From the IMG/VR virus record IMGVR_UViG_2802429225_000009, positions 1 to 29,934 of that record: a stretch of DNA of 29,934 bases; one strand, given 5' to 3'. This DNA is from a virus (Duplodnaviria; Heunggongvirae; Uroviricota; Caudoviricetes). Made by a program: the position numbers and the translations under genes. A model generated the notes under the pieces. The model did no database searches. It saw only the letters and a list, made by a program, of their open reading frames with translations, and was not told the DNA's origin. Shown here in pieces: positions 3,745 to 18,688 of this stretch; the stretch's first letter is position 1; the number at the start of each line of letters is the position of its first letter.

Positions 3745-3944
3745 ACAAAAAGACCTGGTTTCGCGCATACATGTGGGCGCTGGTATGCGTCCTCGTCTCT
3801 CTCATTCTGTATGCAGGACTACTCCCCCGAATGATTTCATCAGACAGCTCCTTCCTGGTATTGCTGGGCATTTTCATTGCCATGCTGTACCCGGCAGGCG
3901 TTGTTCGCCTTTTCAGTAAGTACATCAAGGAAATCAAACAATGA
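3741..3944 (+). CDS. Small integral membrane protein (two predicted TM helices)
   Basis: 67 aa with two hydrophobic stretches (WALVCVLVSLILYAGLL; FLVLLGIFIAMLYPAGVV). Coupled by ATGA overlaps to both neighbours. Sits immediately upstream of the SPFH gene, the position an NfeD-type partner usually occupies. Confidence 0.55.
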   Translation: MNKKTWFRAYMWALVCVLVSLILYAGLLPRMISSDSSFLVLLGIFIAMLYPAGVVRLFSKYIKEIKQ

Positions 3945-4771
3945 AGAAATTCAAACCCTTTCAGATTCTCCCGCTTTTTGCCGCCATCCTGCTGGTTGGC
4001 TGCGATCGCGTTGAGCCAGGTAATGTGGGCATCAAAGTCAACAAGCTGGGCGACGACAAAGGCGTTGGCGAAGTGGTTGGCGTTGGCCGCTACTGGACTG
4101 GCTGGAATACCGAGGTTTACATCTTCCCGACCTTCAAACAAATGAAGACCTACGATGAGCCGTTCAGCTTCCAGATGAGTGACGGCACAACCATCGGCTA
4201 TCACATCGGTGTGGCCTACAAGGTTGATCCATCCAAAGTTACCACTGTGTTTCAGACCTACCGCAAAGGCGTGGATGACATTACCGACACCGACCTGCGC
4301 CAGAAGATCGCCGACGCACTCAACCGACTGGCCAGCAAAATGACCACCGATAAATTTATCGACGGTGGCAAGTCTGAACTGCTGGATTCAGCACTTAAAG
4401 ACATTCAGGCAGAAATGACACCTATCGGCATTCAGGTAATGAGCCTCTCTTATGTGGGTAAGCCGGAATACCCGCCAACCGTTATCGACAGCATTAATGC
4501 CAAAGTCACGGCAAACCAGAAAACTCTGCAACGCGAGCAGGAAGTTAAGCAACGCGAAGCAGAAGCCAACATGCTGCGCGCAGAAGCTGCCGGACAGGCT
4601 GATGCCATTCGAACAAAAGCCCAGGCTGAAGCCGACGCCATTCGTTTACGCGGTGAAGCTCTGCGCCAGAATCCCGGCGTTATGGAGCTGGAAGCGATTA
4701 ACAAATGGAACGGCACGCTACCGCAATACATGACCAGTAACACCGCTGTTCCGTTTGTTCCGGTGAAGTAA
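3941..4771 (+). CDS. SPFH/Band-7 (HflK/HflC-stomatin-like) lipoprotein
   Basis: 276 aa. N-terminal signal peptide with lipobox (AAILLVGC). Band-7 core followed by a C-terminal A/E/Q-rich coiled coil (QREQEVKQREAEANMLRAEAAGQADAIRTKAQAEADAIRLRGEA) typical of HflK/HflC-type proteins. Confidence 0.75.
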   Translation: MKKFKPFQILPLFAAILLVGCDRVEPGNVGIKVNKLGDDKGVGEVVGVGRYWTGWNTEVYIFPTFKQMKTYDEPFSFQMSDGTTIGYHIGVAYKVDPSKVTTVFQTYRKGVDDITDTDLRQKIADALNRLASKMTTDKFIDGGKSELLDSALKDIQAEMTPIGIQVMSLSYVGKPEYPPTVIDSINAKVTANQKTLQREQEVKQREAEANMLRAEAAGQADAIRTKAQAEADAIRLRGEALRQNPGVMELEAINKWNGTLPQYMTSNTAVPFVPVK

Positions 4772-4985: not shown

Positions 4986-5019
4986 TCCGTGTCACTGTCA
5001 GAAGCTTAACCCATGTATA

Positions 5020-5146
5020 CACAAAAAAACCGCTTGCCATGCCGCAATCAGTCAGGTTACATTTCCGCTGCACCTCATAAAACGGGTGCCGGGTTTCGCA
5101 GCCTGCTGACAACCAAAGCGCACAACCGCGCCAGCGGTTTTTTTGT
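5020..5146. repeat. Perfect 15-bp inverted repeat pair flanking about 97 bp
   Basis: CACAAAAAAACCGCT at 5020-5034 and its exact reverse complement AGCGGTTTTTTTGTG at 5132-5146. The interior holds further short hairpins. No convincing ORF. Confidence 0.6.
5124..5143 (+). terminator. Candidate intrinsic terminator for the upstream early/moron operon
   Basis: ACCGC-GCCA-GCGGT hairpin (5-bp GC-rich stem, 4-nt loop) followed directly by TTTTTTT at 5137-5143. Stem is short, so confidence is modest. It coincides with the right arm of the 15-bp inverted repeat. Confidence 0.35.
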
Positions 5147-5323
5147 GCGTACTGTATTGCCACGTCTTTTTCGCACACGAATTATGGCGGGGCGTACGGG
5201 GCCGACTTCGGTCGGGCCGGGTTCTTTGGTTGCCGGTACTGCGAACCCCGTACGTCTCGCCACCCACAGTTTCGCAGCTCTGGATGGTGAGTTTTCAAAA
5301 CTTACAACCAAAGAGGCCACTCC

Positions 5324-5554
5324 ATGGCAAACCGCAAACAGCTCCGCGCTATCGCGGAGCGTCGTCACATCCAGACTGAAATCAACCGCAGACTTTCCCG
5401 CGCATTCCGCGTCGCTAAAATCATGCACATCAATATGCTGCATGAGCGTAGCTGCGAACTTTCAAACCTCTACTCATCCGCTGTTTTCAGTTATCTGGCG
5501 GATGATCTGCGCGAGCTTCAGCAGCTCATCCAGCAGCAAAACAAACTCCATTAA
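5324..5554 (+). CDS. Hypothetical protein
   Basis: 76-aa ORF with AAAGAGG 7 nt upstream. Predicted helical and basic. Lies upstream of A. Confidence 0.5.
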   Translation: MANRKQLRAIAERRHIQTEINRRLSRAFRVAKIMHINMLHERSCELSNLYSSAVFSYLADDLRELQQLIQQQNKLH

Positions 5555-5626
5555 TTCCTGTTCCGGGCCTTTCCTGCACCTTGCGGCGGGAGGCCTTCGC
5601 ACATCTGTAACAAGAGGATTGCCGCA

Positions 5627-5992
5627 ATGATTCTCGCCAACGACTTTCTTGAATACCTGCTCAACACAGAGCGTGATCTTGCCGTTCGCGTACGTGAACG
5701 TTATGACATGTACCTGAAATCCCTGCCTGTACCGCAGCTCGCTGACGGAAAGATTGTTATTGATGGTCGCTACATGATTGACAGCCACGAGGGAAATTAC
5801 AGGCTTTACCGCATTGAAGGTGGCACCCCGTCCGTTATTGGCATTTACCAGCGCCCATCCTCTGCAATCGTCGATGTGATTGCCGACAGCATCCGCATCA
5901 CACATCGCCATGCCGACACAGAAGACACCGTGCTGGAAATTCAGCGGCTGGCTGCCGTCTGCCGCGACACCCTGAATGGCATGACGAAGTAA
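5627..5992 (+). CDS. Hypothetical protein immediately upstream of A
   Basis: 121-aa ORF with AGAGGA RBS, tightly packed against the A start. Confidence 0.5.
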   Translation: MILANDFLEYLLNTERDLAVRVRERYDMYLKSLPVPQLADGKIVIDGRYMIDSHEGNYRLYRIEGGTPSVIGIYQRPSSAIVDVIADSIRITHRHADTEDTVLEIQRLAAVCRDTLNGMTK

Positions 5993-5998
5993 ATCACT

Positions 5999-8821
5999 AT
6001 GACGACAGAGTTCATCAGGGACTGGCAACAACCGCGCCACGCAGTAGGGCGTGAAGGAACGGGGATCCCCGCACCTGAATCCGCGCTTTCCTCCTGGCTG
6101 GATGCCTACCGGGCAGAGAACGAGCGCCGCCAGGAAATGGCTGATGCGGCGTTCTCCGCCACGCCGCTGGGCAACCTGATTAATAAAAGCCTGGACGCAC
6201 AGGAAAAACAGGACAAAACCATCACACTGGCAGGAGACGCCAGAAAACAGGCACGCGGCGCGGTGGATGAAGCCATGGCCTCGCTCCGCCTGCTGCCGTC
6301 CTATCTGCGCGATCCGCTTATTCGCCACCTCTCCTTCCTGCGCAAAAAACAGGAAGCTGATCGCCGGAAAGGCAAAAAGAGCTGGCAGGCTGAACGCTAC
6401 GCGCGCGGAACCCTGCGCAAAATATTCGAACGTCTGGATCGCACCGACCACCGCTGGCTGACACCGGGTTATCGCTCCCTTGCCGGACGCGAACACCTGG
6501 ATGATTTGCTTTACCTGCCGCAGCTCAACAAACACCAGATACAGACGCTGGCCGCCATGACGGCGGCGATGTTCAGCAGCACCTTCGAAAAACTCTGCGA
6601 TGGCTTTGGCGCGACCGATGGCGAGCTGACCATGGATGTAACCCTGAAGGCGTATCAGATGCTGGCCCGCATGGCGTTACACCTGCACGCCATGCCTCCA
6701 CATTATGACGCACTGACAACAGACAAAGACCGGAGGAACGAACCGGACACGGAGCTGCTGCCGGGCGCAATCCTTCGCCTGACCTGTGCAGAATGGTGGA
6801 AACGCAAACTGTGGCTGTTACGTTGCGAGTGGCGGGAAGAACAACTCCGCGCCGCCTGTCTGGTTTCCAGAAAAACATCTCCCTATCTGAGCCAGGACGC
6901 GTTAAGCGAGTTTCGCGCACAGCGCGAGAAAACACGCGATTTCCTGAAAAGTTTCATGCTGGAAAACGAAGACGGGTTCACGATTGATCTCGAGACAGTG
7001 TATTACGCGGGAGTAAGTAACCCGGTTCACCGTAAGGCAGAAATGATGGCCACCATGAAGGGGCTGGAGCTTCTGGCCGAAGCCCGTGGCGACAAAGCGG
7101 TGTTTCTGACTGTCACCTGCCCGTCAAAATACCACGCCACAACAGAGAACGGTCATCCGAATCCCAAATGGAACGGGGCCACCATGCGCGACTCCAGCGA
7201 TTACCTGGTTAACACGTTTTTTGCGGCGGTCCGCAAGAAACTGAACCGCGACGGCCTGCGCTGGTATGGCATCCGCACGGTGGAGCCTCACCATGACGGC
7301 ACCGTGCACTGGCATATGATGGTCTTTGCTCATCCGGAAGAAATCGACACCATTGTGTCCCACACCCGCGATATTGCCATTCAGGAAGATCGTCACGAGC
7401 TGGGTGATGATATTACCCCACGCTTTAAGGCGGAGCACGTCGACGGCTCAAAAGGCACACCGACCAGCTACATCGCCACCTACATCGGGAAAAACCTGGA
7501 CAGCCGTGCCGTGGATGGCATCGACCCGAAAACGGGCAAGCCACGCGTTGACCACGAAACAGGTAAATCAATGGCCGAGAGCGTGGAGCGCGCCATCGGC
7601 TGGGCGCGCCTTCACCGGGTCCGCCAGTTCCAGTTCTTTGGCATTCCCTCCCGTCAGGTGTGGCGTGAACTCCGCCGCCTTGCCAGCCAGATGGCACGCA
7701 ACCCGGAAGGCCCGCAACGGCTGAAGGATGACGCAATGGATGCGGTTCTTGCTGCCGCTGATGCCGGGTGTTTTGCCACCTACATTGAAAAACAGGGCGG
7801 CGTACTTGTTCCACGCAAAGACTACCTGATTCGCACCGCCTACGACCTCGCCGATGAGCTGAACGATTACGGCGAACAGAGTGTACAGATTTACGGGATC
7901 TGGTCGCCACTCATCGGGGAATCCTCCCGTGTGTGCACGCATCAGGATAACTGGAAGCTGGTAAGACGCAAACCGGAAGCGAAAGACAGCGCCCGCGAAA
8001 ATGGTTTTGACCTTCAGGGCGGCCCTGCCGCCCCTTGGACTCGTGGCAATAACTGTCCCCGTGTACAGGAAACGGACAACAACGGGACAGAACAGCCGGA
8101 AGAACGGCCAGCACCGTGGCCGCAGCTTCCTGACGGCGTTGAAGTAAATGAATGGATGCGCTCACTGAAACGGCACGAACGCCGGGCGCTGATGCGTTCG
8201 CTTCGTGACAAACAGGCAAAAAACAGCAGCGATGAAATGCAGAACTGGACACAGAGCCGCAAACAGCCACAGCCTTTGCCTGATAACCACGAGTTACTCG
8301 CTAAAGAATGGCGGGAGTCTGCTGAATCTCTCGGCCTGCATATCGGTGAACAGCAGATGCAGCACCTGTTACGGGGCGGCAGCCTGTACGTTGACGGCAG
8401 CATCATTGCACCGCAGGGATTTGAAATTGTACGCAAACCGGATACCCGCCCGGACAGCCGAATCACGCAGCTCTGGCAGCGCCTGAGCCGCAATCACGGC
8501 GTAAGCAGCACGGAGATCCGTCATAACCCGGTCGCCAGCTATCTGGAACAGCTGGGGGCATCAGACCCCGAAGCCGCCGCACGCCTGGCATCCACACTTC
8601 AGCAAGACCAGAACACCATGAAAACACCCGTTACCGTGCTTTCTGACATGCTGCGCGCCATCCGTGACGCAGAGCACGCACAGAGAATCAGTGAAACCAC
8701 TGAACGCGCCCGCCGCAAAGCAAACCTGCTGCGGGGTGGCCTGACCAGTGGAAACAAAAAACAGACAAAAACGGGATTTACAAATCCCGTAAATGAGCAA
8801 AAAACGCGCCGCGATATATGA
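5999..8821 (+). CDS. A: Rolling-circle replication initiator (HUH endonuclease), P2 gpA family
   Basis: 940-aa ORF. HUH-type motif (HHDGTVHWHMMVFAHPEE) and other blocks remembered from P2/186 A proteins. Position after the early genes matches P2. The C-terminal ~180 aa is longer than I recall for P2 A and overlaps the first palindromic site, so the true stop could be earlier if there is a sequencing frameshift. Confidence 0.85.
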   Translation: MTTEFIRDWQQPRHAVGREGTGIPAPESALSSWLDAYRAENERRQEMADAAFSATPLGNLINKSLDAQEKQDKTITLAGDARKQARGAVDEAMASLRLLPSYLRDPLIRHLSFLRKKQEADRRKGKKSWQAERYARGTLRKIFERLDRTDHRWLTPGYRSLAGREHLDDLLYLPQLNKHQIQTLAAMTAAMFSSTFEKLCDGFGATDGELTMDVTLKAYQMLARMALHLHAMPPHYDALTTDKDRRNEPDTELLPGAILRLTCAEWWKRKLWLLRCEWREEQLRAACLVSRKTSPYLSQDALSEFRAQREKTRDFLKSFMLENEDGFTIDLETVYYAGVSNPVHRKAEMMATMKGLELLAEARGDKAVFLTVTCPSKYHATTENGHPNPKWNGATMRDSSDYLVNTFFAAVRKKLNRDGLRWYGIRTVEPHHDGTVHWHMMVFAHPEEIDTIVSHTRDIAIQEDRHELGDDITPRFKAEHVDGSKGTPTSYIATYIGKNLDSRAVDGIDPKTGKPRVDHETGKSMAESVERAIGWARLHRVRQFQFFGIPSRQVWRELRRLASQMARNPEGPQRLKDDAMDAVLAAADAGCFATYIEKQGGVLVPRKDYLIRTAYDLADELNDYGEQSVQIYGIWSPLIGESSRVCTHQDNWKLVRRKPEAKDSARENGFDLQGGPAAPWTRGNNCPRVQETDNNGTEQPEERPAPWPQLPDGVEVNEWMRSLKRHERRALMRSLRDKQAKNSSDEMQNWTQSRKQPQPLPDNHELLAKEWRESAESLGLHIGEQQMQHLLRGGSLYVDGSIIAPQGFEIVRKPDTRPDSRITQLWQRLSRNHGVSSTEIRHNPVASYLEQLGASDPEAAARLASTLQQDQNTMKTPVTVLSDMLRAIRDAEHAQRISETTERARRKANLLRGGLTSGNKKQTKTGFTNPVNEQKTRRDI

Positions 8822-8868
8822 AGCGCGCACAAAACAGGCGAAAGCGGGATTTCAGAATCCCGTAAACG
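8771..8868. promoter_or_regulatory. Twin palindromic sites upstream of parM (candidate parC-like centromere/operator)
   Basis: CGGGATTT-ACA-AATCCCG at 8772-8789 (perfect 8-bp arms) and GGGATTTCAGAATCCC at 8846-8861 (7-bp arms). Both are followed by GTAAA, lie about 75 bp apart, and the second is 37 bp upstream of the parM start. Candidate -10 TAATTA at 8871-8876. Confidence 0.4.
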
Positions 8869-8897
8869 GTTAATTAACCAACATAAGGAAAATCGAC

Positions 8898-9857
8898 ATG
8901 AAAATTTGTATCGACGACGGCTCCACCAACATCAAGCTGGCATGGACTGAGAACGGCGAACGCCGCAACGCCATCAGCCCGAACAGCTTCAAGTCGGAAT
9001 GGTCTGCGCCGTTCGGTGGCACGCAGCCCGCAAACTACATGCTTGATGGCGTGCGCTATGGTTTTGATCCGGTCAGCGATCGCTTTGTCCAGACGACCGA
9101 CACGCAATACCAGTACAGCGATGTGAATGTCATTGCCATTCATCACGCGCTGGTCAAATCAGGTATCACACCACAGGAAGTGGATGTGGTTGTCACCCTG
9201 CCACTGAGCGAGTATTTCGACACAAACGCCCAGCCGGATATGACCAACATCAACCGCAAAAAAGCGAACGTTATGCGCCCGGTGGAGTATCAGAACAGTG
9301 AGGCATTCACTATCCGCAACGTACGGGTTATGCCTGAATCCATTCCGGCTGGCTTTAAGGCACTGGCTGACATGAGTCAGTTTGAATCCCTGCTGATTGT
9401 GGATTTGGGCGGAACCACGCTGGATGTGGCAAAGGTTCAGGGACAACTGGCAGGTATCAGCCAGGTGTTTTGCGATCCACACGTAGGCGTTTCTCTGATG
9501 GCCGATGCCGTGCTGTCGGTGATGGCCACCAACGGTATGCGTACCAGTCACCACATCGCTAATACCATTATCGAACATCGCCACGATGAAGCCTGGCTGC
9601 GCCAGCACATCCACAATAACGCACATTACGCCAGCCTGATGGCAGTTATTCGTGAAAAGGAGGAAACACTGAAACAACGCGTGATCCGCGCGCTGGCGGG
9701 TTTTTCGGGTTACGGGCGGGTGATGGTTGTAGGTGGAGGAGCGGAGATTGTGGCACCCGCTATCCGCGAAGCCTGCGGAGTTAATGCGACTTTCATCGCG
9801 GACGGGGTGCCACAGTTTGCTCTGGTTAATGGGCTGTACGCAATGGACAAGGAGTAA
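8898..9857 (+). CDS. parM: ParM/StbA actin-like segregation ATPase
   Basis: 319 aa. N-terminus MKICIDDGSTNIKLAW...ISPNSFKSEW...QYSDVNVIAIHHALVKSGI tracks remembered R1 ParM (MLVFIDDGSTNIKLQW...ISPNSFKREW...QYSDVNVVAVHHALLTSGL). Actin-fold phosphate motifs (DDGST; DLGGTTLD). AAGGA RBS. Confidence 0.85.
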   Translation: MKICIDDGSTNIKLAWTENGERRNAISPNSFKSEWSAPFGGTQPANYMLDGVRYGFDPVSDRFVQTTDTQYQYSDVNVIAIHHALVKSGITPQEVDVVVTLPLSEYFDTNAQPDMTNINRKKANVMRPVEYQNSEAFTIRNVRVMPESIPAGFKALADMSQFESLLIVDLGGTTLDVAKVQGQLAGISQVFCDPHVGVSLMADAVLSVMATNGMRTSHHIANTIIEHRHDEAWLRQHIHNNAHYASLMAVIREKEETLKQRVIRALAGFSGYGRVMVVGGGAEIVAPAIREACGVNATFIADGVPQFALVNGLYAMDKE

Positions 9858-10190: not shown

Positions 10191-10478
10191 ATGTCCACCA
10201 TTACCAAAGAATGGTTACAACGTAAAATCACAGAGTTTAAATCGTGGCGCGAAGACATCCCGTTCGGTCTTGATGAAGACGATCACAATATGTTAATCGC
10301 ACTGGAAATCGCACTTGCATCACTGGAAGCAGAGCCAGTGGCATGGATGCACGCAAATAATCCTATTGGAATACCGGCGATAACAAGAAGTAAAGATGTT
10401 GCAGACAGCTGGCGCTCTAAGGGATGGAATGTATTGCCTCTTTATTCACTGACCCGCTCCATCAATTTATGCCATTAA
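10191..10478 (+). CDS. Hypothetical protein, first gene of the AT-rich cassette
   Basis: Start re-set to ATG 10191 (MSTITKEWLQRKI...) with AGGAG 7 nt upstream. 95 aa. AT-richness rises sharply from about 10180. Confidence 0.45.
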   Translation: MSTITKEWLQRKITEFKSWREDIPFGLDEDDHNMLIALEIALASLEAEPVAWMHANNPIGIPAITRSKDVADSWRSKGWNVLPLYSLTRSINLCH

Positions 10479-10489
10479 TGGAAGTAATC

Positions 10490-10849
10490 ATGATGAAAGA
10501 TAATTCCGGAAGCCAGCGTGCATCAGTTGCAGTTATGGTAATGATTAAATTTGTGAAACAGTACACCGGAAAGCCAATCTCGCTCCGGCAATTAAGCAAA
10601 GAAACCGTTTCACTGTCATATCTGGAGCAAATATTCAGATATTTACGGGAAAGTAGCCTGGTAAAAGCCACACGCGGCCCGGGTGGTGGATATATCCCAA
10701 CAAAAGAAAATTACAGTGTTGGTGATATTGTCCGGGCAATGAAATGTTCCGGATTATATACACAGCACGTTATTCTGGCTGCACTGGATAATATTTCTTT
10801 AACCAGCCTGCAGGAAGACACAAATTATCAGTTGTCTGCCATTGAATAA
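10490..10849 (+). CDS. Rrf2-family (IscR/NsrR-like) winged-helix regulator, short form
   Basis: Start re-set to ATG 10490. 119 aa. The family signature SLSYLEQIFRYLRESSLVKATRGPGGGYIPTKENYSVGDIVRAM aligns with remembered IscR ([47 protein letters not shown]). The downstream segment has one Cys rather than the three-Cys cluster-ligand set. Confidence 0.7.
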   Translation: MMKDNSGSQRASVAVMVMIKFVKQYTGKPISLRQLSKETVSLSYLEQIFRYLRESSLVKATRGPGGGYIPTKENYSVGDIVRAMKCSGLYTQHVILAALDNISLTSLQEDTNYQLSAIE

Positions 10850-10853
10850 GAAA

Positions 10854-10894
10854 ACCCGGAACGGGTGCGCAAATTCTTTGTGCGCCCGTTCCGG
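10854..10894. terminator. Bidirectional hairpin terminator between the convergent Rrf2-like and ogr-like genes
   Basis: 11 perfect base pairs (CCCGGAACGGG / CCCGTTCCGGG), extendable to about 17 with wobble pairs, around a 7-nt loop (AATTCTT). A-run upstream and T-rich sequence downstream. Sits between the two stop codons. Confidence 0.6.
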
Positions 10895-10917: not shown

Positions 10918-11175
10918 CTATCCGGCCTGCAACAACTCCAGCGCCATCTGTTTTTCTTCCGGGCGCATTCGTTCAATCAACAGCTTTAACACGCCATTCT
11001 CCAGCCCGCTGGGCACCAGTGTGTGCGAGTAGGTCAGGTTCATCACCCAGGTGTGCCCACACTCGAGACGGGTGCAACGGTAATAAACATCTGCAAAGCG
11101 ATCATCTTTCCAGAAGGTCTTCTCAATCACTGCGCGTTCACCACAGCAAAAACATCGCGCTTTTTGTCTGCGCAT
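10918..11175 (-). CDS. Ogr/Delta-family zinc-finger late transcription activator
   Basis: Start re-set to the ATG at 11175 (MRRQKARCFCCGERAV...YYRCTRLECGHTWVMNLTYSHTL...) with GGGAGGTGG RBS. Cys pairs CxxC...CxxxC with spacing like remembered P2 Ogr (…CPLC…QCQNVNCSATF…). 85 aa. Confidence 0.65.
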   Translation of the reverse strand: MRRQKARCFCCGERAVIEKTFWKDDRFADVYYRCTRLECGHTWVMNLTYSHTLVPSGLENGVLKLLIERMRPEEKQMALELLQAG

Positions 11176-11240: not shown

Positions 11241-12275
11241 TCACTCCGGGGGCTCATCAAATTCAAGAATAAATTTCACCTCCCCCAGTCGCCTGATATC
11301 CGGGTCACTGTTGATTCCCTCCATGATCAGGCGGCGCATCGGAATAACCTCGTCCCTGTAATATGCCTCGCGGGATTTCAGTGGGTCACCAAGCCCGGCC
11401 GTATTTGCGGGAATGATGCCGGCAAGTCCGGGTGGGAAACGGTGCGCAACGAGCTGATCCTGGGCACTGATGGTTTTTATATTCAGGAACTCATCTTTTG
11501 TACCTGAATCCCCGATAGGGATCACCTTAACGCCTTCTTTGTCTCCGCCCGGTATATTGATAAACATGGATTTAAAATTGCCCGCCCCTTTTGACGCCTC
11601 TATCTTTTTACGGAATTCCGCCTCGAGCTCGGGATCCATGTCCGGGTCAGTGGAATACAGGATATAACCAAGATGTGCGCCGTTCTTGTAATACTTGCGG
11701 CGAAAGCGGGTGGCATCCACATTCAGCATGGCGGATTCCATCCCGTGAATATAATCCGGGACACCGTAAACCTGCTGTTGTGGGTCATAAATGGCCACGA
11801 ACACCACTTCGCCTGGCTGATAAACGAGATCTTCCAGTGCTGCCTGCACAATCACCGTGCCCCCCTCGTTGTTACGCCGCAGGTACAGAGAAGGTAACGT
11901 ATGCAGGCGCACCACTCGACCGAAGCCATTGCGCACTTTAAGCAACCCCATATCCCCGAATATCAGCAGATTGGTTACTGCTGCCGCCATGGCGGCGTGT
12001 GTCATACCACCACCACCCCGAAAACCCTGCATGATCATATTGACGCGCGCACGCAATACCGCGCCGTGATACGGTGCGATATTGGACAACATGGCGAGAT
12101 CCATGCGCTCAATTGGCGGCGTGTACCAGCCGTTATAGCCATCCCAGAGCGAGCCGTAATAACAGCCCCATGCAGCGACCGGCTCCGGGTCACCAAATTC
12201 AATAAACGTCATTTTGCTGGCTGTTTTTTTTGCCACGCCATCGTGTAACACGGGGTATTTTTTCTTTTTACTCAT
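11241..12275 (-). CDS. Q: Portal protein, P2 gpQ-like
   Basis: 344 aa, the length I recall for P2 Q. Immediately downstream of, and overlapping, the large terminase gene on the same strand; divergent from the O-N-M-L operon as in P2. Confidence 0.85.
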   Translation of the reverse strand: MSKKKKYPVLHDGVAKKTASKMTFIEFGDPEPVAAWGCYYGSLWDGYNGWYTPPIERMDLAMLSNIAPYHGAVLRARVNMIMQGFRGGGGMTHAAMAAAVTNLLIFGDMGLLKVRNGFGRVVRLHTLPSLYLRRNNEGGTVIVQAALEDLVYQPGEVVFVAIYDPQQQVYGVPDYIHGMESAMLNVDATRFRRKYYKNGAHLGYILYSTDPDMDPELEAEFRKKIEASKGAGNFKSMFINIPGGDKEGVKVIPIGDSGTKDEFLNIKTISAQDQLVAHRFPPGLAGIIPANTAGLGDPLKSREAYYRDEVIPMRRLIMEGINSDPDIRRLGEVKFILEFDEPPE

Positions 12276-17978: not shown

Positions 17979-18688
17979 CGCGCCCAGTGATTAACGAGTC
18001 ACAACTCCGGCAGGTTCGTCGCGCCATCAGAGAGGCAGAACTTCCGCCGGCAAAGGCCAGAAAGCTGCTGGTTCGCATTGCGAAATACGGCCTGATACCG
18101 GCTGCACGACGCAATGTGAAAGCACAGCGAACACCGGAGGGGGCAGCCTGGGCACCACGAAAAAGACCGGATAAAGCCAGCGGCAGGTATAAAAACAAAA
18201 TGCTGCTGGGACTGCCGAAACTGCTGGCCATCAGGGTTGACGGCAGCGGGAAAAGTGTCCGCCTTTTCTTCAAAAAAGGGGCTTACAACACCGGCTCTCA
18301 TGGTGGGGCGGTCGCGTGGGTGCAACAGCACGGCGCAACCATCAAAGGCCGCGCCACAAAGCGCCGGGACAGCGAAGCCATGCGCACCCGTCCCGCCACA
18401 CGACGGCAGGCAGAACGCCTTCTTTCTCTGGGCTTTCGCGCCCCCGTCGGCGCAGTCAGCAAAAAGACCGGGCGCAGGGGGCGCAGAAAACCTTCCCTGA
18501 AATGGATTATGGAAAACATGAGTATGGCGCAGGCCGGACTGGTGATCAGCATTCTGAAAGGCGAGCAGAAAAAACGTGTATGGGAAATCAAAATCCCCTC
18601 CCGCGCATTTCTGGGAGCCAGCGATGCTGAATTTGCCCGCATTCTGGAAGCGCAGCTGCGTAGCCTGCATTACGGCGGCACGAGATAA
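17975..18688 (+). CDS. Putative virion morphogenesis / tail completion protein (gpS-like) with a basic C-terminal extension
   Basis: 237 aa, start overlapping the previous stop. Contains a WAPRKRP-type segment I associate with the gpS family. The Arg/Lys-rich C-terminal half is longer than P2 S (~150 aa). Confidence 0.5.
   Translation: MTRPVINESQLRQVRRAIREAELPPAKARKLLVRIAKYGLIPAARRNVKAQRTPEGAAWAPRKRPDKASGRYKNKMLLGLPKLLAIRVDGSGKSVRLFFKKGAYNTGSHGGAVAWVQQHGATIKGRATKRRDSEAMRTRPATRRQAERLLSLGFRAPVGAVSKKTGRRGRRKPSLKWIMENMSMAQAGLVISILKGEQKKRVWEIKIPSRAFLGASDAEFARILEAQLRSLHYGGTR

Follow-up and report, generated by a model that had tools for sequence, protein, structure and literature searches.

Two dyad boxes upstream of parM in a P88-like prophage as a probable ParR-bound centromere

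We analysed the surroundings of the partition genes parM and parR in a stretch of viral DNA of 29,934 bp (IMG/VR record IMGVR_UViG_2802429225_000009), hereafter the window, which corresponds to a P88-like prophage (Xuanwuvirus, Peduoviridae, P2-like) of Escherichia coli. Type II partition systems are textbook plasmid machinery, and the centromeres described for them are arrays of direct iterons of 10-11 bp. In this prophage parM, which encodes an actin-like ATPase, and parR, which encodes its adaptor, follow the replication endonuclease gene A, and two near-identical palindromic boxes precede parM. Judging from sequence comparison, the two boxes and their A-rich leaders probably make up a parC-like centromere/operator of a type II ParMRC module that would be bound by ParR.

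Two boxes at the junction of gene A and parM

Positions 8300-9400 of the window were 95-97.5% identical to 14 deposited phages, P88 among them. A core region of 161 nt was 100% identical in E. coli A36. About a fifth of the complete E. coli genomes (1,059 of 5,426) contain it, nearly always on the chromosome; 1,110 of the 1,111 matches in such genomes were chromosomal. The sequence-only reading had noticed two near-identical palindromes upstream of parM, and both were found where it had placed them (Table 1). It had described them as GGGATTT and AATCCC with three or four nucleotides in between, each followed by GTAAA and the two lying about 75 bp apart. The arms and the GTAAA stood, but the spacer is 3 nt in both cases, GGGATTT-ACA-AATCCC at 8773-8788 and GGGATTT-CAG-AATCCC at 8846-8861, and the boxes lie 73 bp apart from start to start. 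The first G of box 1 is at -125 and that of box 2 at -52 from the ATG of parM (8898), with 36 nt from the end of box 2 to this ATG. As had also been noted, the first palindrome lies inside the 3' end of the A frame, in which box 1 is read as the codons T-G-F-T-N-P-V. The conserved core of the boxes is (C/T)GGG-N10-CCC(G/A).

Table 1. Positions of the boxes, repeats and genes at the locus and its surroundings
Feature	Position	Strand	Remark
Box 1, dyad CGGGATTTACAAATCCCG	8772-8789		CGGGATTT-AC-AAATCCCG, 8-bp arms; in last gpA codons
Box 2, dyad CGGGATTTCAGAATCCCG	8845-8862		CGGGATT-TCAG-AATCCCG, 7-bp arms; intergenic
Repeat unit 1, 39 nt	8755-8793	+	Direct repeat D1: A-rich leader, box 1, TAAA
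Repeat unit 2, 39 nt	8828-8866	+	Direct repeat D1: A-rich leader, box 2, TAAA
A-tract segment with helical phasing	8751-8885	+	10-11.5 bp period; covers both boxes
TTAATTAA, conserved TTAAT(T/C)AA element	8870-8877	+	Box 2 to parM ribosome-binding site
Last 22 gpA codons	8755-8821	+	Overlap repeat unit 1
gpA, replication endonuclease, 940 amino acids	5999-8821	+	Pfam Phage_GPA; stop TGA 8819-8821
parM, actin-like partition ATPase, 319 amino acids	8898-9857	+	StbA_N 3.8e-82, ParM_N 1.1e-68
parR, ribbon-helix-helix adaptor, 104 amino acids	9862-10176	+	Begins MTTPTRRISFYLKP; Plasmid_stab_B 4.3e-24
Open reading frame of 95 amino acids	10191-10478	+	
Rrf2-like gene	10490-10849	+	Winged-helix family; in parMR transcription unit
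ogr-like gene	10918-11175	-	
Portal gene	11241-12275	-	

No other site of this kind occurs in the window. A search of both strands of the 29,934 bp for CGGGATT-N4-AATCCCG with at most two mismatches returned just these two matches; 0.10 matches were expected from shuffled sequences, and two or more appeared in 1 of 100 shuffles. The shorter pattern GGGA-N8-TCCC occurred only twice in a complete P88-like genome of 34.5 kb (NZ_CP148288.1), both times upstream of parM. The window holds a third match to the shorter pattern in the late-gene region (18582-18597, GGGAAATCAAAATCCC), which is absent from that complete genome and for which about 0.45 would be expected by chance.

Each box is part of a direct repeat of 39 nt. 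The two copies are 82% identical, A-rich in their 5' part and spaced by 73, and together they extend from -143 to -32 relative to the parM ATG. When AA periodicity (10-11.5 bp) was scored along the window, the segment that covers both boxes ranked first among ~5,970 sliding positions at the 60-nt as well as the 130-nt scale. In an R1-like parC, used as a control, the A-tract phasing of the centromere likewise ranked first. The columns of the TTAAT(T/C)AA element, which follows box 2, are invariant in an alignment of the E. coli, Plesiomonas and Hafnia loci, and the element has no sigma-70 score.

The names given to the flanking genes by the sequence-only reading, A, ParM and ParR, were all upheld by profile matches (Table 1). 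ParM matches StbA_N and ParM_N over its full length. It is 97-99% identical in ~250 viral contigs, and its next relatives are plasmid ParMs at ~52% (46-52% over the plasmid range). In parM, nucleotide diversity was 0.006 at the first, 0.003 at the second and 0.051 at the third codon position; this concentration at third positions indicates strong purifying selection. A ParR profile matched the solved structure of pB171 ParR (2JD3, E = 2.7e-14) over nearly its whole length, and the protein aligns with R1 and plasmid ParRs.

ParR turned out to be mosaic in the E. coli group. Among ~85 close relatives at least three types exist whose overall identity is only ~52-55%, against 98-99% for ParM. All types have the N-terminal strand TTPTRRISFYLKP unchanged, and the first 14 residues, in which the DNA-reading strand presumably lies, are invariant as well; recombination has its breakpoint immediately behind the invariant N-terminal MTTPTRRISFYLKP (loci L002-L084). 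The C-terminal tail NI(Q/R)A(F/L)FP(E/K) is conserved, with NIQAFFPK as its form in the window. All three types occur with the same box haplotypes, and no association between haplotype and ParR type was detected among the close relatives. Outside prophage copies, the nearest plasmid ParR is 48% identical and has ordinary iterons, and no plasmid with a ParR of the same strand type was found.

Since box 1 lies in the last codons of gene A, the sequence-only reading had asked whether the C-terminus of the protein is real. The frame is real: the stop is kept in 76 of 84 loci, 76 nt before parM (75 nt in two), and 8500-8754 has a coding signature, with an excess of diversity at third positions. This excess is lost over the last ~20 (21) codons, and in the other 8 of 84 relatives (L002-L084) indels of 1 nt in the A-runs just before box 1 shift the frame, so that gpA stops 24-133 nt before parM. 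The tail of gpA thus tolerates truncation or replacement. The C-terminus is therefore genuine, but its extreme tail seems dispensable, and the DNA site seems to have shaped it more than the protein has.

The suggestion that the second palindrome overlaps a candidate parM promoter was not borne out. A sigma-70 consensus scan of 8500-9000 found no promoter, although such a scan could miss a weak or activated one, and none was found in the Plesiomonas or Hafnia loci either; the same scan detected the known promoter of the R1-like parC control. Since neither a terminator nor a promoter was detected on the plus strand between gene A and parM, parMR is probably co-transcribed with A.

Conservation of the boxes in distant P2-like prophages

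A protein search returned ParMs of intermediate similarity (54-62% identity). They belong to P2-like prophages from Hafnia, Plesiomonas, Serratia and Enterobacter, and in every case the gene is located between those for gpA and the portal protein. In a first group, Plesiomonas (L094) and Hafnia (L092), whose ParMs are both 62% identical to that of the window, the 200 nt before parM contain exactly two GGG-N10-CCC boxes each, at 3870 and 3942 in Plesiomonas and at 3873 and 3946 in Hafnia. The spacing is 73, 72 and 73 bp in E. coli, Plesiomonas and Hafnia, and the distances to the parM ATG are -125, -131 and -128 for the first box and -52, -59 and -55 for the second. We estimated the chance probability of such a pair at ~1e-5 to 1e-6 per genus. 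In the three-way alignment the GGGA...CCC blocks are invariant, whereas the flanks and the inner arms have diverged. The palindromes occupy the place expected of a type II centromere, as the sequence-only reading had held, and their geometry has been kept there in distant P2-like prophages.

The first box of Plesiomonas also overlaps the end of gpA. In Hafnia, an open reading frame of 167 amino acids is inserted between A and parM, and both boxes lie in its 3' end, ~420-490 bp past the gpA stop. The boxes thus belong to parMR and not to A, as they adjoin parM even where A is far away. The corresponding repeats of a second group likewise abut parM even where other genes intervene.

This second group comprises Serratia and Enterobacter types at six distinct loci (L095, L096, L100, L101, L183 and L185). 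Here two inverted arms of 20 nt, (C/T)GGGAAC(G/A)A(A/T)ATAGAAAAAT, start at -118 to -121 and are separated by a variable sequence of exactly 28 nt. The inverted repeat is a candidate for a second centromere design in the same phage family. A conserved TTTAAACGGC(A/T)TTTCAT element follows it in these loci. The sequence ACAGGCAAAAACGGGA, present in the box 2 unit of most E. coli relatives, is also found in the left arm of Serratia-type loci, indicating that the E. coli and second-group regions are homologous, and both layouts fill the same interval, -130 to -50 upstream of parM. The ParR strand TRR(I/V)SFYL goes with the two-box layout in three lineages and NRKISFYL with the inverted-arm layout in six.

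Viral and metagenome scans with the Plesiomonas and Hafnia ParMs gave only P88-like or plasmid-type loci and thus no further intermediate lineage. Three loci considered as intermediates were discarded: P0018 has no upstream sequence, and P0023 and P0025 are AT-rich or plasmid-type. Within the P88-like population, the central GG/CC pairs of box 1 are invariant in 223 loci, and nucleotide diversity is 0.032 in the GGG/CCC arms versus 0.159 in the central 4 nt.

A parC-like centromere and its alternatives

In the type II systems described so far the centromere lies directly upstream of parM-parR (PMC5016525, PMC2241845). The parC of plasmid R1 (type II ParMRC; Dam & Gerdes 1994) consists of 2 x 5 tandem 11-bp iterons around the promoter, is strongly curved and binds one ParR dimer per iteron (PMC2241845, PMC5016525). 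The phage site resembles it in its position immediately upstream of parM-parR, in its two repeat blocks and in being rich in helically phased A-tracts, the curvature having been demonstrated experimentally for R1 (PMC2241845). The adaptors are 31-34% identical in two alignments and share the ribbon-helix-helix N-terminus and a conserved C-terminal tail. The two sites differ in that the R1-like one has a promoter, TTGACT-16-TAAACT, where none is recognisable in the phage, and in that the iteron array of R1 is replaced by two 18-bp dyads in two 39-nt units, half of them inside a coding region.

The closest plasmid relatives of ParM (IncL/M pOXA-48-like, IncFII, IncI1 and Kosakonia pwem22; ParM ~50-52% and ParR 22-48% identical) also have two repeat clusters upstream of parM. 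Where the repeats are clear, in the pOXA-48-like, IncFII, Leclercia and Kosakonia cases, these clusters are T-rich tandem direct iterons of 10-11 bp, and none of the closest plasmid relatives has GGG-N10-CCC dyads. A spacing of 73 bp in the R1-like and pOXA-48 parC regions was considered as a shared feature and rejected, because in R1 it pairs non-equivalent iterons; the distance between the R1 clusters is 96 bp in the register of our analysis and 94 bp in the literature.

Two further comparisons come from other mobile elements. The srpC site of the SXT/R391 integrative and conjugative elements (ICEs) likewise belongs to a type II module on a normally integrated element and consists of few (four) short direct and inverted repeats upstream of a ParM-like gene, to which adaptor binding has been shown (PMC4489591). 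It differs in its adaptor SrpR, in which homology to ParR is not detectable (the phage protein clearly belongs to the ParR/StbB family), in that the repeats are unrelated, and in that the element is an ICE and not a phage. Among prophages, the closest precedent in function is AlpAC/alpS of the Corynebacterium prophage CGP3, which combines an actin-like filament with an adaptor whose binding sites are repeats in its own upstream region; the system serves phage DNA transport and replication after induction (PMC5539076). AlpC and AlpA are however not orthologues of ParM and ParR, alpS is a repeated TTAAnnG heptamer, and gene order and phage family are different. We found no description of a P88 or P2-like parC in the literature consulted.

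The locus combines a ParM gene, a ParR gene directly downstream, a repeated cis site upstream and phased A-tracts. The geometry of the boxes has been kept while their flanks and inner arms diverged and their potential to form hairpins was lost, which suggests double-stranded protein-binding sites that travel with parMR. ParR is most likely the protein that binds them, since its N-terminal strand does not vary among the relatives and the Serratia- and Enterobacter-type phages combine another ParR strand with another repeat layout. Arc, CopG and omega are ribbon-helix-helix repressors whose dimer pairs bind short symmetric sites cooperatively. Such proteins are pure repressors, and a centromere role is known for omega and ParG only. 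ParR dimers, probably two per box, would recognise the G/C triplets of each dyad, (C/T)GGGA-N8-TCCC(G/A). A distance of 73 bp corresponds to ~7 helical turns and would place the boxes on the same face of intrinsically curved, A-tract-phased DNA, so that the ~130-bp segment could wrap or loop around a ParR oligomer. In the wrapped complex the conserved C-terminal tails of ParR (NIQAFFPK) would face the ends at which ParM filaments grow, and the complex might drive apart, or position, phage genomes that are outside the chromosome once excision or infection has taken place. Transcripts of the early operon that run on through gene A would probably include parMR; ParR might act as an autoregulator, but this has no support at present. 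The site would probably represent a new architectural variant of the type II centromere/operator.

Several observations weigh against the ParR centromere. Tandem direct iterons of 10-11 bp, by which R1, pSK41 and the plasmid relatives are characterised, are missing from 8750-8890, a difference from R1 to which the sequence-only reading had pointed. Self-similarity at lags of 10 and 11 remained below z = 2 there, and the controls were positive (z = 3.8 for the R1-like parC, z = 4.7 for pOXA-48). Sub-iterons of 11 bp that could be seen by eye in the A-rich leader found no support in autocorrelation. A resemblance to the R1 iterons was rejected as well: the R1 position weight matrix does not single the boxes out, the right arms AATCCCGTAAA being in the top 0.6% of 11-mers before correction, and the score for a 5 x 11 array at 8750 ranks fourth. 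Neither Plesiomonas nor Hafnia showed the A-tract phasing. Within the population the box cores are not significantly more conserved than neighbouring DNA (segregating positions 3/12 versus 17/34), a common haplotype has CCTG in place of CCCG in box 2, and 14 of 53 metagenomic loci have no exact GGG-N10-CCC in at least one box. The covariation of ParR strand and layout is one between two groups only, the operator half of the claim is weak as no promoter is detectable, and the 18-bp dyads also fit helix-turn-helix dimers, so that another protein could bind them.

This last possibility seems unlikely, though it is the most probable of the alternatives. A different dimeric protein, either a helix-turn-helix regulator of the phage or a host factor, would bind the boxes and control parMR or the end of the early operon, and ParR would bind elsewhere or non-specifically. 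An 18-bp dyad with outer half-sites of 5 bp has the classic helix-turn-helix geometry, direct iterons are lacking at the boxes, and no covariation is seen between the box haplotypes and the three types of ParR. However, the boxes travel with parMR through different genomic contexts, no other regulator gene is consistently linked to them, and their motif is absent from the immunity and early-promoter region and from the rest of the phage genome.

It is rather improbable that the 39-nt duplication is a scar without function, left behind by module exchange where gene A meets parMR. The locus is indeed highly mosaic, with the breakpoint in ParR, variable accessory genes downstream and a variable tail of A, and conservation of the boxes within the population exceeds the background only weakly. 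A scar would nevertheless leave unexplained that box spacing, geometry and distance to parM are kept in three genera amid diverged surroundings, and that the geometry is equally rigid in the six lineages of the second group.

The palindromes could also act as hairpins, either as intrinsic terminators of antisense (minus-strand) transcription or as stem-loops that stabilise or process the 3' end of the A message. The stems of the window are stable (-9 to -11 kcal/mol, a stability reached by none of 300 shuffles). Read on the minus strand, box 1 runs into TTTTTGTCTGTTTTTTG and was called terminator-like, the A-rich leader of the 39-nt repeat being then the T-tail; it is the only one of the palindromes to qualify as a rho-independent terminator in the window, and this property is not conserved in the relatives. 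In Plesiomonas and Hafnia only GGG and CCC can pair, around a loop of 10 nt (-4 to -5 kcal/mol), and no terminator was called. In 223 loci we found no compensatory double change in the arm pairs, all changes being one-sided. The palindromes have no U-tract on the plus strand, no minus-strand gene lies between the boxes and the terminator-like sequence behind ogr (10854-10866), and Rfam gave no match for the palindromes. A role as hairpins is therefore quite implausible.

The sequence-only reading had offered operators of the Rrf2-like regulator as its own alternative. Rrf2-type dimers bind dyads, and the gene for this winged-helix protein lies in the same transcription unit. Of 70 close relatives whose downstream sequence reaches far enough, though, 6 have the gene and 64 lack it, as against 68 that have both palindromes. 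The gene is also absent from the Plesiomonas, Hafnia, Serratia and Enterobacter loci, of which Plesiomonas and Hafnia keep the boxes, so that this explanation can hardly be upheld. Equally remote is a part for the palindromes in the replication origin recognised by gpA: by the annotation of the P2 record the origin, with the gpA nick site, does lie within gene A of P2, in its 3' part, and box 1 is inside A too, but the boxes stay with parM where A is separated from it, and the homologue of the P2 nick site, GCCGC.CCT.GGA.TC.TG.CAATAACTGT, was found at ~8017-8056 inside gene A, ~750 bp upstream of box 1. There the P2 peptide GIAAPRSPVNNC corresponds to GPAAPWTRGNNC in the window, and this segment is likely the rolling-circle origin of the phage.

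If ParR binds the boxes, the case of a genuine ParM/ParR pair in an integrating P2-family prophage, with a likely centromere reduced to two dyad boxes on phased, curved DNA, would widen the known grammar of ParR recognition. It would also provide a compact cassette of ~1.4 kb in which to ask how few adaptor sites can capture a ParM filament. Why an integrating phage keeps a costly segregation machine would become testable, whether for positioning of replicating genomes, for a carrier state or for stabilisation before integration. If ParR does not bind them, the finding shrinks to a conserved regulatory dyad without an assigned partner. A bolder proposal is that P88-like prophages use this minimal two-dyad centromere with ParMR to persist and segregate actively as episomes, which would make an integrating P2-family phage a facultative phage-plasmid and its centromere a distinct class, with four inverted half-sites on phased curved DNA, half of them in a replication gene, in place of an iteron array. 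We regard this proposal as speculative and doubtful.

Neighbouring genes and deposited relatives

A P88-like genome has been deposited as a circular 34.5-kb E. coli 'plasmid' (NZ_CP148288.1, 1-34461, complete). It carries integrase, gpA, parMR and structural genes, and the circular record could reflect an episomal state or simply the induced circular form.

Upstream of gene A, two genes of the window encode proteins of the SPFH/Band 7 and Ash families (3941-4771 and 5013-5630), an unusual accessory cargo for a P2-like early operon. Downstream of parR, the 95-amino-acid reading frame and the Rrf2-like gene form a cassette (10191-10849) that occurs in 6 of 70 close relatives, always with the window-type ParR; it is a moron-like accessory element that has been inserted between parR and the terminator. 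A long inverted repeat, rich in G+C (10854-10890, CCCGGAACGGGTGCGC...GCGCCCGTTCCGGG), separates the end of the Rrf2-like gene from the convergent ogr-like gene. The scan called its inner part (10854-10866) a minus-strand terminator, and the whole repeat is likely a bidirectional terminator that closes both converging units.

Other lineages carry different cargo beside parMR: a HicAB toxin-antitoxin system in Serratia (L095, 5450-6084), a KAP NTPase and a methyltransferase in Enterobacter (L096, 5411-6757), and in Hafnia the 167-amino-acid reading frame mentioned above (L092, 3453-3956). The interval from A to the portal gene is a hot spot of moron exchange. Finally, a contig labelled 'Vagococcus sp. 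WN89Y' (NZ_JBQPOM010000071.1), and thus attributed to a Firmicute, contains a P88-like prophage whose ParM is 97% identical to the E. coli one; it is probably a contaminated assembly or a misassigned contig.

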